Sequence record: OQ718158.1 | Reading direction: 5' to 3' (one strand) | DNA length: 64,000 nt | Origin: Escherichia phage vB_Ec-M-J | Shown here: positions 51,531 through 62,567 of the stretch, piece after piece | Layout of the letters: each line of letters starts with the position of its first letter | Numbering within the stretch: position 1 is the stretch's first letter | Notes under the pieces: model-generated | What the model saw: the letters and a program-made list of their open reading frames with translations, nothing else | What the model was told of the DNA's origin: nothing | Databases searched by the model: none | Position numbers and translations under genes: made by a program

Positions 51531-54500
51531 TTAAGCAGTACGTTGTGCAATGAACAAATCAGTAACTGGACTTACACCATCATAAATTACTTGGTAAATG
51601 GTCACGCTACCAGCAGTTTTGTTTAGTTCACCATCAACAACAGCATAAGTACCATCAGTTGTAAAGTTTCTGTTACCAGTTGCATCTTGTTTAACATAGA
51701 TGTATACTGATGCAGCTTTACCGCCACCAATTAGGCCAGTAATTGGAGCCAACGTGGTATCTTGGTCTAGAGTGATGAAGTATACGTTACTTGTACCATC
51801 TGGAGTCCATGTTCCGGTTGGAGCAATTACTGATGATGTAACTTGAGTTGGGATTACATCATACTTTTTGGTAGTTACTGTTGTAGTAGTTAAGTTAGCA
51901 TTAGTAGTGGTTAGTTCACCAGTCACTGTTACTGCCTTATCAAACACAGCATTTTCTTTAAATGATGAAGTTGCATTAACGGTTAGAACGTCAGCCGCTG
52001 CGTCACCTAATGTTACGTTACCATTCACAGTTAGTGCTCCACCTACTGTTGCGTTACCAGTAATGGATGCACTTGCAAGTGTAGCCAAACCTGATGTTGT
52101 AATTGTAGAAACGGTTGTTGCAGCGAATCCAGCAGTACCAGTTGCAGTGATATTGCCACCCACTGTTATGTTACCCGCAGTGGTCACTGCACCAGTGATA
52201 TTTGCACCACTTGACATAGTTACTAAACCACCAAATGAACCAGTAGTAGTAACTTCTAAAGTATTACCTTTAAGTAATCCAGTTGCAGTGATGGAAGTAC
52301 CAGCAGTAATTGCAGTACCTGCACTTAATGTGGTTCCAGCAGCTACGTTGTTAGCTGCAGTCAAAGACTTAACAGCTACATCGGAATCTGCTTGGTTCAA
52401 TTGTGCATTTAGTACGCCAGTAACAGTGAAGTTACCGTTGTTTACAACGTTACCATTAACGATTAGGTTGTTGTTTTGTGAACCGACTTCACCAATGGTT
52501 GCAGCCTTGGATATAAGTGATGCACCAGATGTAATATCACTTGCTGCCTGTATTGTTTGTTCGGCAACAATTGCATATGGTTCAATTGTTTGACCACTAA
52601 CATCAATATCAGCATTTATACCACCGTCAACACGCAAGGAACCTGCGATGAACGTATTTGGAAAAATCTGTACTGTTTCTGGGTTTTCACCAGTTTGTGT
52701 ACCAATTACAACATTTGCTCCAGTTTTCACTGCACCAGCAGTTGTGATAGAACCGAGTGTAGTAGCACCAGTTACTGATAGTGTTCCACCTATGGTTGCA
52801 TTGTTTGTTACTATTAAGCCAGTACCTGTACCATTAAAGGTAGACGATGGTGCTGAAATTGCACCAGTAACACCAAGAGAACCACCAACAGTTGCATTAC
52901 CATCTGAATGAATGGTTGTTGCGACAGAAATACTATTTGCAACAACATCAGTACTGGAAAGATCCAAACTACCAGGAGTTAATGTACCAGCAACAGTTAC
53001 ATCATCACTGAATGTAGCTGCACCAGTTACACCTAGTGTAGTACTAAAGTTACCGGATGTTGATGTAATACCAGATGTTACAATAGATCCCGCAGTTGCA
53101 GTTCCAGTTACATCAAGTGTTCCACCTATGGTTGCATTATTAGTAACAGATAGAGCAGTTCCTGAACCATTTAGTGTTACAGATGGAGCAGATACTACAC
53201 CAGTTACACCCAAATCGCCACCAACAGTTGTGTTACCGTCGGAATGCATGGTTGTTGCTACAGAAATACTATTTGCAGTAATATCAGATGATGCTAAATT
53301 CAAACCACCAGCAGGTGTAAATGTACCATTTACGGTTACATCCCCAGTAAAGGTTGAATCTCCTGACACATCAACTGTTGTTGTCGAAACACCACCATTT
53401 AAGTTTGTTAAACCAGTGACACTTAGTGTTCCACCAACCGTTGCGTTGTTGTTAACAGTTAAGCCAACACCTGGTCCAGTTAAGGACGCAGAAGGACTTG
53501 TTATTGCCCCACCAAAAGATGCAGTTCCAACAGAACTTATAGTTGTGGAAGATGATAATGATTTAACTTCAACATCAGATGCTGATAAATCAACACCACC
53601 ACTTGCAGTAAGTAATCCATCAACTTGTAAGGTTCCACCAAGTGTTGCTGCACCAGTACTAGATAGTGTATTTGTACTTACTGATGTTGCAGACAAACTA
53701 CCAGTATTAACAGTACCTAGTGTTGTTATGCCAGTTACGTTTAATGTACCATTTAAAACAGACGCCTTTGTAACAGACAAACTATCAATTGTAGCTGGAC
53801 CAGAAACATCGATAGTTTCTGCATCTAAACTACTTAATGTTGATGCACCAATTACATTAAGTGTTGTTGCAGCTTCTACACTGTTTACCACAAGATCAGC
53901 ACCAGCAAGATTCAAACCACCTTCTGGTATAAATTCACCTTTAACAGTTAATTTCTGAACAGTACTGTCACCTGAAATATCCAACGCAGATGCTGCTACG
54001 CCACCATTAAATGTACTTTGACCAGTAACTGCTAAAGTTGTTCCAACTGTTGCACTGTTTAGTGCTGCATTACCACTTATTGATGCGGCAGGTGCGGTTA
54101 TTGTACCTTCATCCAACTGCAACCCACCAGAAACAACTTGAACACCACCAGTTGCTACTGTAACTTTACCAGCGGTATTAACAGTACCAGATGTGGATAC
54201 TGCACCGACAAGAGTTGAAGTACCATTAACTGTCAAATTACCAGAAATTTCAGGACTACCAGTAACAATACCAGTTGTTAGAACCAAATCTCCACCAACA
54301 GTTGTTGAACCAGTACTTGCTAGTGTTGAAGCTGTGATATCAGCGGAACTTAGATCAATAGATCCATCAACACTAATATCCCCACCAACATGCACGTTTC
54401 CTAATGAATCTAACGATTTAACGGTCACATCAGTTGTGCTTAAGTCAATTATACCAGCAGTTAGTGTGCCAGATACAGCCAAATCACCAGTGATTGCAGT

Positions 54501-62400: not shown

Positions 62401-62567
62401 GAAATGTCTACAGTTTCTGCTTCAATTGCAGTGAATACAGCGTCAGCAAAAGTTACAGTTCCATTAACTGTTAGATTTTTATTGAATACTGCATCACCTT
62501 TCACAAGAAGATCTTTAGCAACCGTTGCACCACCAGTTATATCGAGATCTGTTTTAATCGAGTACAT
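59418..62567 (-). CDS. fibre protein N-terminal part (paralog, ends at frame disruption)
   Basis: 1049 aa; N-terminus MYSIKTDLD matches the 1988-aa paralog; ends where the paralog continues. Confidence 0.5.
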   Translation of the reverse strand: MYSIKTDLDITGGATVAKDLLVKGDAVFNKNLTVNGTVTFADAVFTAIEAETVDISSTLDVAGKASLNGGIEVHGNSVIGNLPVGSDTATINSNAQFQSPVSMAGNLTQTAGTAVLKDTQVASMDVLGTSSFKGNITAETGTTAAFDKITATDATFTNTATTDITSTGTANFKDVNISGTLGGTFSLSDVNATTLTVSGLTSLQGGVTLGSNITGVNSSANFRDIKIGSNAANTNYRLSFNYSAPSLRPTVILQNEIQSELMSPATLSVLKTASFGDSSLSTFGITGNGLNKLDYLTVSGNSVQDPTTPLLQVTSGKTKVHDFEVTGTATIPNIESTGTANFNNINVSGTLGGTFSLDDIEANTLTVSGLTSLVGGVTLGADISGANSTANFKAVSLGQNAADANVKYGFAYSAPGARPTVILQNEIQSELVSPAVLNVQKTATFGDASLATYGITGNGLNKLDYLSITGNGTQSPATPQLQVAGKSVLNDVEFTGTVTGLTVDVSGQDLTPKSVDAAEAIKGQTLESVGQTTVGTNLQVGGTANVVGALTGTAATFTGDVSAAKGTFSGDVSVTGQTVTVRDLVVTGTTTGVTAQADVDGLDIAPNKVDVTTTLSVAGDTTLAGLTASSVTSTGDVTGASVSGNTVTAAGALSGGSLAVTGAGSMASLTVPSITGDTTFANNVTITGTLTPSSIDLSTTDVSAASLTTTGNVTVGGSLAVTGAIDLSAADVVTKSVSATNPSTFGVINASSVAATGDVSGGTLTTTGAAKVGTLTSTGVVSGSRLSSGTATITTSVTVPTLQAEAAGAGTLNLASNVVAAKDLTVTGVFKPEGGLDLTTVDITANSLTTTADVNVGGNLVVDGTFDLSAADVSVKSLASAETITSAGVITVTDSTNTSSLPKITSTDATLFTVNAGTINATGNSVLQSVSATQVTANSAEFSGGGLGLQVDNDANVGGALSVGGIATVGSLTTTAASLNIAKNTAITGDLAVSGTLTAGSIDLSNTDVTVKSLDSLGNAHIAGNLTVDGAFDLSATNLVAASLASCWY
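61097..62117 (-). repeat. intragenic tandem repeat (two units of about 510 bp) in the split fibre gene
   Basis: Cores at 61174-61199 and 61682-61707 match the units in the 1988-aa gene. Confidence 0.7.

Follow-up and report, generated by a model that had tools for sequence, protein, structure and literature searches.

The 64,000-nucleotide (nt) stretch of Escherichia phage vB_Ec-M-J analysed here (sequence record OQ718158.1; the whole stretch is referred to as the window) carries on its minus strand a giant gene (gene A) and, upstream of it, a split paralog (gene B). The question posed by this locus is what such genes encode, to what extent they arose by duplication of internal repeats, and whether these repeats still recombine. 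A first-pass annotation of the DNA had described them as giant fibre genes built from internal repeats of about 510 bp marked by near-identical DNA cores. The open reading frames (ORFs) concerned, one of 1988 amino acids (aa) and two fragments of 1049 and 582 aa, were confirmed, and they are tail fibre genes according to the PHROG 4549 family. Taken as a whole, the evidence makes it probable, with good confidence, that A and B are tandem paralogous long tail fibre genes of an Asteriusvirus, i.e. of a RaK2-like E. coli jumbo phage, and that they are of the phiTE long tail fibre (LTF) type. Overall, this is an ordinary modular fibre with standard growth by module duplication and recombination.

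Identity of the fibre genes

The PHROG 4549 'tail fiber protein' profile was matched by all three ORFs, with E values of 3.3e-195 for A and 4.7e-130 for the 5' fragment of B (for the 3' fragment and the coordinates of all features see Table 1). Neither A nor B had a significant match in Pfam-A or NCBIfam, and the Pfam hits of window proteins at E up to 10 comprised only unrelated families, weak and far under their cut-offs. The closest DNA to the window is that of the Asteriusviruses (fEgEco12, Ecwhy_1, EC.P1, BF17, 121Q and others), a group of jumbo phages that infect E. coli and have genomes of 350-385 kb. The gene order matches that of 121Q, UB, fEgEco12, Ecwhy_1 and BF17, gene A being syntenic with 121Q gp571, fEgEco12 g316 and Ecwhy_208. 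At the equivalent position fEgEco12, Ecwhy_1 and BF17 harbour two complete genes (∼1900 and 1638-1644 aa), both annotated as 'long tail fiber proximal subunit', and 121Q and UB one fibre gene only (1841 and 1959 aa, respectively). The 1049-aa product of B is identical to the 'tail fiber protein' WGM49547.1 of Escherichia phage vB_Ec-M-J. Meanwhile gp256 of phage phAPEC6, a tail fibre protein of 180 kDa, has been detected in virions by mass spectrometry (PMC7247149), and its size and its position beside thymidylate synthase suggest that it is an ortholog of the window fibre.

The sole relative in the PDB, searched at E up to 1, is the LTF of phage phiTE (9CUY chain g, 793 aa). The profile of the 170-aa unit described below matches residues 169-331 of this protein as a single unit (E = 8e-30 for the whole protein and 7.6e-20 for the stretch), and a profile made from 16 C-terminal tips matches its residues 639-793 (E = 4.2e-23). 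The phiTE-type C-terminal domain was also recovered by phmmer, which aligned residues 1813-1985 of A with residues 621-792 of 9CUY_g (E = 1.4e-11). In agreement with this, the family PF26209 (Phage_phiTE_241_C) was precomputed on 19 of the 20 homologs among the matches listed.

Two 170-residue units in each paralog

Repeats were detected by a diagonal identity scan, after BLASTP self-comparison had given the main diagonal only. At an offset of 170 residues, 103 of 170 positions of gene A are identical, against a best diagonal of 35.6 ± 1.5 in composition-preserving shuffles (∼45 standard deviations). The first and the second unit (u1 and u2) of one gene share 63% identity in DNA and 52% in protein, and the in-phase DNA background, taken over 510-nt windows of gene A, amounts to 0.326 ± 0.024 with a maximum of 0.44, i.e. 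the excess is ∼13 standard deviations. Between A and B, equivalent units share 74-76% DNA identity, the longest exact match between the two genes being 47 nt. Both paralogs do contain tandem units of about 170 aa, and the similarity extends over whole units rather than over short cores alone. The self-comparison also revealed significant repeats of 138 and 112 aa. Outside the cores the copies are diverged, and Tandem Repeats Finder reported none of the arrays, the similarity between copies being too low for it (below 70%). The genes are not built from the 510-bp repeats, since the two units make up 340 of the 1988 residues of A (17%) and the remainder draws on 138-aa, 112-aa and degenerate modules. 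A low-complexity origin, in which the repeats would be a by-product of the Thr/Gly/Ser/Val/Ala-rich composition (T 338, G 236, S 232, V 214 and A 196 of 1988 residues) that also yields many short 60-70% repeat 'families' across the region, is refuted by both of the above excesses and by the occurrence of the same units as discrete domains in distant relatives.

The most conserved part of the unit is a near-exact core of 27-33 nt coding for the invariant peptide GITGNGLNKLDYL, which also accounts for the longest exact matches between units (20-33 nt). All four cores noted in the first-pass annotation exist: the 26-mer GTAATCTAGTTTGTTTAGACCATTAC is identical at 56262-56287 and 56772-56797 of gene A, and the same core is present twice in B, where the coordinates given earlier were 1-2 nt out of register (the in-register spacing of the four is 510/4401/510 nt). 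In B.u2 the core deviates by two synonymous substitutions. Were the four cores drawn independently from the codon usage of the genes, they would agree at all nine codons with a probability of ∼6.5e-8. Selection on the exact cores at the DNA level was nevertheless rejected, as relatives differ at synonymous sites within the core codons; because of this variation, the invariant peptide together with codon bias is enough to explain the exact cores. Peptide blocks such as TGTANF..N.SG.LGGTF and GITGNGLNKLDYL are present in every unit.

Age and copy number of the unit

A search of 1.84 billion representative proteins with the unit profile yielded 74 proteins at E up to 1e-3. When these were pooled with the homologs found earlier and complete units were counted in 54 family representatives, one unit was found in 30 proteins (median length 665 aa), two in 21 (1517 aa) and three in 3 (1869 aa); protein length thus climbs stepwise with the number of units. 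In P0002, a protein of 2120 aa with three units, the middle unit is a hybrid, its first ∼35 residues being of the u2 type and residues ∼70-140 of the u1 type, which is what an unequal crossover of unit 2 with unit 1 is expected to produce. Exactly two units were found with the profile hidden Markov model (HMM) in 10/10 Asteriusvirus fibre proteins examined. The identity matrix of 29 units groups u1 with u1 and u2 with u2, both within Asteriusvirus and within more distant relatives. The 170-aa duplication is therefore older than these RaK2-like genera, and its copies have not been homogenised.

The length variation and domain shuffling ascribed to this architecture can hence be upheld at the level of the family, where one to three units, the hybrid of P0002 and the exchanged cassette of gene A described below are found, but there is no sign that the number of repeats is currently unstable in this phage. 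An actively unstable array, in which near-identical units would recombine often, vary in number within populations in the manner of a contingency locus and be homogenised by gene conversion, is very improbable. It could draw on the exactness of the cores, synonymous sites included (B.u2 excepted), as well as on the unit numbers across the family and the one hybrid unit. However, the modest identity of the units and their position-wise grouping across genera indicate no concerted evolution, the number of units is constant among the ten close relatives, the core codons vary synonymously, exact matches between A and B do not exceed 47 nt, and no array was reported by Tandem Repeats Finder.

Shaft modules of gene A

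The further shorter repeats that had been reported towards the C-terminal part proved to be real, and they fall into two types, both far above shuffled sequences: modules of 138 aa (414 nt), present as three tandem copies and a partial fourth, and modules of 112 aa (336 nt), present as two tandem and two degenerate copies (Table 1). The offset-138 diagonal shows 52% identity over 257 aa, with 88 of 138 residues identical versus 30.8 ± 1.2 in shuffles; the offset-112 diagonal shows 47% identity over 133 aa, with 62 of 112 residues identical versus 26.8 ± 1.1. Of the families returned by the repeat search, D6 and D15 lie at the 138-aa modules and D19 at the 112-aa modules. Counting the 170-aa units as well, about half of gene A is taken up by clearly recognisable modules (340 + 414 + 224 residues), and within the window they were found nowhere but in the fibre genes. 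Their number differs among relatives. Strong 138-aa modules number three in the window A and two in its nearest orthologs, and strong 112-aa modules one in 121Q, two in UB and two in the window A.

Mosaic structure of gene A

The first 437 nt of gene A show only five or six mismatches to fEgEco12 g316 and Ecwhy_208. Dense mismatches start straight after ...AATGTGTCTGG, the conserved LNVSG block of unit 1 (window ∼57060), and the last ∼967 nt of the gene (51531 to ∼52506) are 98-99% identical to Ecwhy_208. The two ends of gene A are 97-100% identical to those of the clade relatives, and gene B together with the flanking genes is nearly identical to relatives of the fEgEco12/Ecwhy_1 type. The 4.55-kb cassette enclosed by these breakpoints, on the other hand, shares at most ∼70% identity with any record of the phage collection, and its protein is locally 20-30% identical to the orthologs. 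Gene A is also 82-89 residues longer than its clade orthologs. The simplest reading is that the shaft cassette was replaced by recombination with an unsampled relative, the junctions probably lying in conserved blocks. The exact protein sequence of A was absent from a collection of 15 billion proteins. In a homolog search with full-length A, 8000 word-sharing candidates were scored and the close GenBank orthologs were missed, hence this search carries little weight as to the occurrence of the cassette elsewhere.

In its N-terminal region, A is 53 residues shorter than B, 121Q and UB, the difference being a clean in-frame deletion (57048-57497 compared with 61959-62567). In some more distant relatives with two units (e.g. 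P0004-P0007), the corresponding region (residues ∼37-120) resembles, by its score, an incomplete copy of the 170-aa unit, namely of its first half.

The C-terminal tip, a predicted β-sandwich of ∼112 aa, is the best-conserved part among orthologs (98-100% identity in the clade and 87-95% versus 121Q/UB) and the most different part between the paralogs A and B (50-56%). The tip of A resembles the tips of the single-copy genes, and that of B has diverged. That the shaft rather than the tip is the variable part is the one unusual feature of this fibre. The B-type fibre of BF17 (locus L003, gene 8439-13355) is ∼100% identical to the window B, except for a patch at residues ∼1381-1500, where identity drops to 61-75%, and it has six residues fewer; this patch before the tip is another local mosaic in the family.

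Function of the tip

The tip is slightly favoured to bind a host surface glycan, judging from its CpaA-like fold and from the divergence of the paralog tips. A possible, though rather doubtful, alternative is that the protein is a proximal half-fibre resembling gp34 of T4, the C-terminal domain of which docks on another phage fibre protein (e.g. the 259-aa or 654-aa products encoded next to it) and not on the host. Fragments of gp34 are present in the PDB (PMC10253068), where the search at E up to 1 gave only the phiTE fibre, and no gp34 match was obtained in Pfam or NCBIfam. Still less likely, and at odds with the textbook fibre, is a reversal of the roles of tip and shaft, in which the shaft modules, the 170-aa units included, would bear the specificity and their number and type would set host range or branching. 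Such a reversal is conceivable because orthologs have an almost constant tip, whereas their shaft modules diverge to 20-30% identity and are exchanged as cassettes; the modules might then be lateral glycan-binding sites or docking stations for the side fibres of 'hairy' phages.

The split of gene B

The first-pass annotation was correct in recognising two fragments of a paralog, but it missed the cause of the split, which is a 14-nt deletion relative to the intact orthologs. When the missing ACTGGTTCTACTAC is re-inserted, a single ORF of 1644 aa is restored, which has 13 mismatches to Ecwhy_207 over 4935 nt (99.7% identity) and no other defect. The relatives encode one continuous B protein of 1638-1644 aa. 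Metagenome locus L007, a more distant scaffold with the same order of a B-type gene followed by a gene in the A position, is continuous across the deletion site as well. As written, B would yield a 1049-aa product without distal shaft and tip, and of its two fibre genes this phage has probably lost the function of one. A deletion between short direct repeats was considered and rejected, as slippage between TACTG copies would remove 12 nt and not 14.

A synonymous change lies 7 nt away from the deletion. The sequence alone does not separate a real mutation from a consensus error, and that gene B is intact in the real phage, the gap being an error of sequencing, consensus or assembly, is an unlikely but by no means negligible alternative. 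Several points speak for it and count against a genuine deletion. The rest of the gene is nearly identical to Ecwhy_207 and free of other defects, the microhomology expected of replication slippage is absent around the deletion, and deposited genomes of these phages do hold errors, as shown by the record of phage CMSTMSU of the same group, in which the fibre genes are broken up into many pieces. Against it, a clean loss of 14 nt in DNA that is neither repetitive nor homopolymeric is atypical of short-read consensus errors, and the truncated product was annotated by the depositors (WGM49547.1). In the CMSTMSU record (L004, 3675-14453) both fibre genes are spread over more than 10 short coding sequences annotated as 'flagellar hook-length control protein', and an antisense ORF has been entered as a gene, a pattern suggestive of frameshift errors combined with mis-annotation.

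It is highly improbable that the fragments of B are joined by programmed ribosomal frameshifting or work as two separate subunits. There is indeed an overlap of ∼14 nt between the two frames, with a GTG at 59395 in the downstream one, but AGT TGT TGG TAC TGA contains no slippery sequence, no clear Shine-Dalgarno sequence precedes the GTG, and the protein is continuous in all relatives.

Upstream blocks, antisense reading frames and neighbouring genes

The upstream regions of the two genes had been described as duplicated. The duplication is real but small, being limited to the 24-nt block AACTAAATATAWGTATATTAACAA and a GGAGGG ribosome-binding site, and the intergenic DNA otherwise differs between A and B. 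Within the window AACTAAATATAWGTATATTAACAA has two matches only, each before a fibre gene and each with the GGAGGG site. Because the block also precedes the single-copy genes of 121Q and UB and is found in diverged form in L007, it is a conserved upstream element that was copied along with the gene, and probably the promoter. It was rejected as a general late-promoter consensus of the phage, its occurrence in the window being restricted to the fibre genes. The terminator-like hairpin that follows gene B is conserved in L007.

Thirteen ORFs of 87-348 aa lie on the plus strand inside the fibre genes, all in one antisense frame. These long antisense ORFs are composition artefacts, as had been supposed, and the five longest have no match to any PHROG family. 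Their cause, however, is not the symmetry of the repeats but the amino acid composition, which is rich in Thr, Gly, Ser, Val and Ala and poor in Tyr, His and Gln. A stop in this frame requires that the next sense codon begin with TA or CA, and Tyr, His and Gln together account for 55 of the 1988 residues of A; in gene A the frame has 24 stops versus ∼172 in each of the other two.

Directly downstream of A, a 259-aa gene (50686-51465, minus strand) matches DUF4376 (E = 6.6e-9) as well as the PHROG annotations 'virion structural protein' (E = 1.5e-77) and 'tail fiber protein' (E = 1.6e-7), and its product is possibly a fibre partner or assembly factor. It is followed by the gene of a 654-aa structural protein of PHROG 14293 (48631-50595, minus strand), in which a stretch of ∼40 residues, GN..G.L.V.GN.TLGD...D..TVN..S, is shared with the pre-tip region of A and B (BLASTP E = 4e-5). 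A match to PHROG 14293 was likewise obtained with the B fragment (E = 2.6e-4). In UB (L005, 3735-5102) an extra gene of 455 aa is located between the 259-aa and 654-aa structural genes, and there is none in the window, 121Q, fEgEco12 or Ecwhy_1. A partial ORF (63600-63986, minus strand) runs off the end of the window. Relatives have at this place a 713-aa protein annotated with colanic acid degradation/biosynthesis, and the ORF may represent a depolymerase beside the fibre genes. At positions 1-48000 of the window, ORFs of at least 100 aa are mostly encoded by the plus strand, in contrast to the fibre cluster (48631 onward), which uses the minus strand. The 64-kb window yielded no tRNA genes.

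Table 1. Coordinates of the fibre genes, their modules and associated elements in the window (HMM, hidden Markov model)
Feature	Position (nt)	Strand	Basis
Fibre gene A, intact, 1988 aa	51531..57497	-	ORF list; PHROG 4549 match; synteny
C-terminal tip domain of A, last ∼112 aa, predicted β-sandwich	51534..51869	-	
Divergent central cassette of A, sharp identity breakpoints	52506..57060	-	Comparison with fEgEco12 g316 and Ecwhy_208
Two tandem 112-aa (336-nt) modules of A, aa 1371-1594	52716..53387	-	HMM E ∼1e-58 each
Two degenerate 112-type modules of A, aa 1170-1367	53397..53990	-	HMM domains E 8e-14, 1.6e-17
Partial fourth 138-type module of A, aa 989-1071	54285..54533	-	HMM domain E 4.6e-19
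Three tandem 138-aa (414-nt) modules of A, aa 542-955	54633..55874	-	HMM domains E 1e-59 to 1e-67
Unit A.u2, 170 aa, aa 259-428	56214-56723	-	HMM domain; 63% nt, 52% aa identity to A.u1
Unit A.u1, 170 aa, aa 89-258	56724-57233	-	HMM domain E 1.8e-95
Conserved 24-nt upstream block of A, AACTAAATATAWGTATATTAACAA	57544..57567	-	Two-site match; also before 121Q/UB genes
Terminator-like hairpin after gene B, between the paralogs	57604..57628	-	10-bp stem, then T run
Gene B 3' fragment, 582 aa from GTG, +1 base relative to 5' fragment, B-type tip	57647..59395	-	ORF list; PHROG 4549 E 1.4e-54
Gene B 5' fragment, 1049 aa, premature TGA at end	59418..62567	-	ORF list; identical to WGM49547.1
14-nt deletion site in B, ACTGGTTCTACTAC missing	59429..59430	-	Alignment with fEgEco12 and Ecwhy_1
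Unit B.u2, 170 aa, aa 312-481	61125-61634	-	HMM E 8.4e-95
Unit B.u1, 170 aa, aa 142-311	61635-62144	-	HMM E 1.5e-96
Conserved 24-nt upstream block of B, AACTAAATATAWGTATATTAACAA	62612..62635	-	Two-site match

A model for the origin of the fibre

The LTF of phiTE is a trimer, the N-terminus of which sits on the baseplate wedge and is followed by a predicted extended β-helix, with 512 Å for 793 residues (PMC11972413). By homology, the product of the window genes would be a trimeric fibre formed mostly by a rod of extended β-structure and presumably anchored on the baseplate, to which each 170-aa unit, scaled from phiTE, may add ∼11 nm. Each gene is laid out as a conserved N-terminus, two 170-aa units, a long shaft of diverged, presumably β-stranded modules and a small, predicted β-sandwich tip. 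The modules probably arose by in-frame tandem duplication through unequal recombination, each duplication lengthening the rod; the 170-aa duplication took place before the RaK2-like genera split, and its products have been kept thereafter as two position-specific units. Conserved peptide blocks leave islands of DNA identity (27-47 nt), at which recombination among units, paralogs and co-infecting phages could resolve, the outcome being a rare gain of a unit (from two to three) or the replacement of a shaft cassette. Gene A would thus have gained its 4.55-kb cassette from an unsampled lineage and retained the N-terminus and tip of its clade. With two paralogs that differ in their tips, the virion would possess two fibre specificities, but the B copy has apparently been lost here.

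A number of observations weigh against this model and must be borne in mind. No donor of the cassette was found, and its origin by recombination is read from the identity breakpoints only. The rod model of the units received no structural support: in the structure prediction run for one 170-aa unit, the AlphaFold2 (AF2) monomer was an extended chain without secondary structure, i.e. no fold was obtained (predicted local distance difference test score, pLDDT, 79; predicted template modelling score, pTM, 0.43), and Foldseek found no match to this model in the PDB. In the phiTE LTF itself the experimental model covers residues 14-171 only, hence it offers no solved structure of either unit or tip. 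Finally, electron microscopy of phAPEC6 (PMC7247149) and fEgEco12 showed 'short' baseplate fibres, which fit poorly with the ∼130-nm rod extrapolated from phiTE.

With the above results the domains of the largest Asteriusvirus fibre protein are mapped, which is of interest as these phages are candidates for phage therapy. The N-terminus, the two 170-aa units and the tip are its fixed parts, and the 4.5-kb shaft cassette is the exchangeable one. The long antisense ORFs within fibre genes should not be annotated as genes.

Comparison with known fibres

The gene family, its location in the virion, the 'tail fiber' annotation and the truncated B product in GenBank are already known. Papers on fEgEco12, phAPEC6, Sharanji, JP4, the RaK2 adsorption complex and phiTE were consulted, and no description was found in them of the 170-, 138- or 112-aa modules, of the series of one, two and three units, of the cassette or of the deletion. 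The YadA head, stalk and anchor domains of Pfam, an annotation used in PBECO4 and Yersinia phages, had no match in A or B even at E up to 10.

Among characterised fibres, the phiTE LTF (PDB 9CUY/9MJN chain g; PF26209) has the 170-aa unit, the C-terminal tip and the type of shaft made of β-strand repeats in common with A and B. It contains, however, one unit in 793 residues, whereas the window genes have two units in 1644-1988 residues and additional 138-aa and 112-aa modules; moreover, phiTE belongs to the Vequintavirinae with genomes of ∼145 kb, and the window derives from a jumbo phage. Closer to the window genes are 121Q gp571, UB AXC36801 and phAPEC6 gp256, which share their position, the two 170-aa units, the 138-/112-aa modules, the tip and the upstream block, but are encoded by a single gene, while the clade of the window has two tandem paralogs. 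The two-gene arrangement itself is found in fEgEco12 (g316/g317), Ecwhy_1 (208/207) and BF17, with B being 99.5-99.7% identical in DNA; in these phages B is intact, in contrast to the split copy of the window, and over its central 4.55 kb their gene A does not exceed ∼70% identity to that of the window.

In T-even and other phages, tail fibre genes are mosaics, the modules of which are exchanged at conserved sequence blocks, and internal repeats lead to stepwise changes of fibre length. Fibres made of duplicated modules that are reshuffled at conserved blocks are thus of a well-known kind, and no new mechanism is involved here. As in the T-even-type mosaics, the exchange junctions of the window fibre lie at conserved blocks within diverged genes, yet the two share no sequence relationship and, unlike in the T-even type, it is the shaft that varies most and the tip that is most conserved among orthologs.

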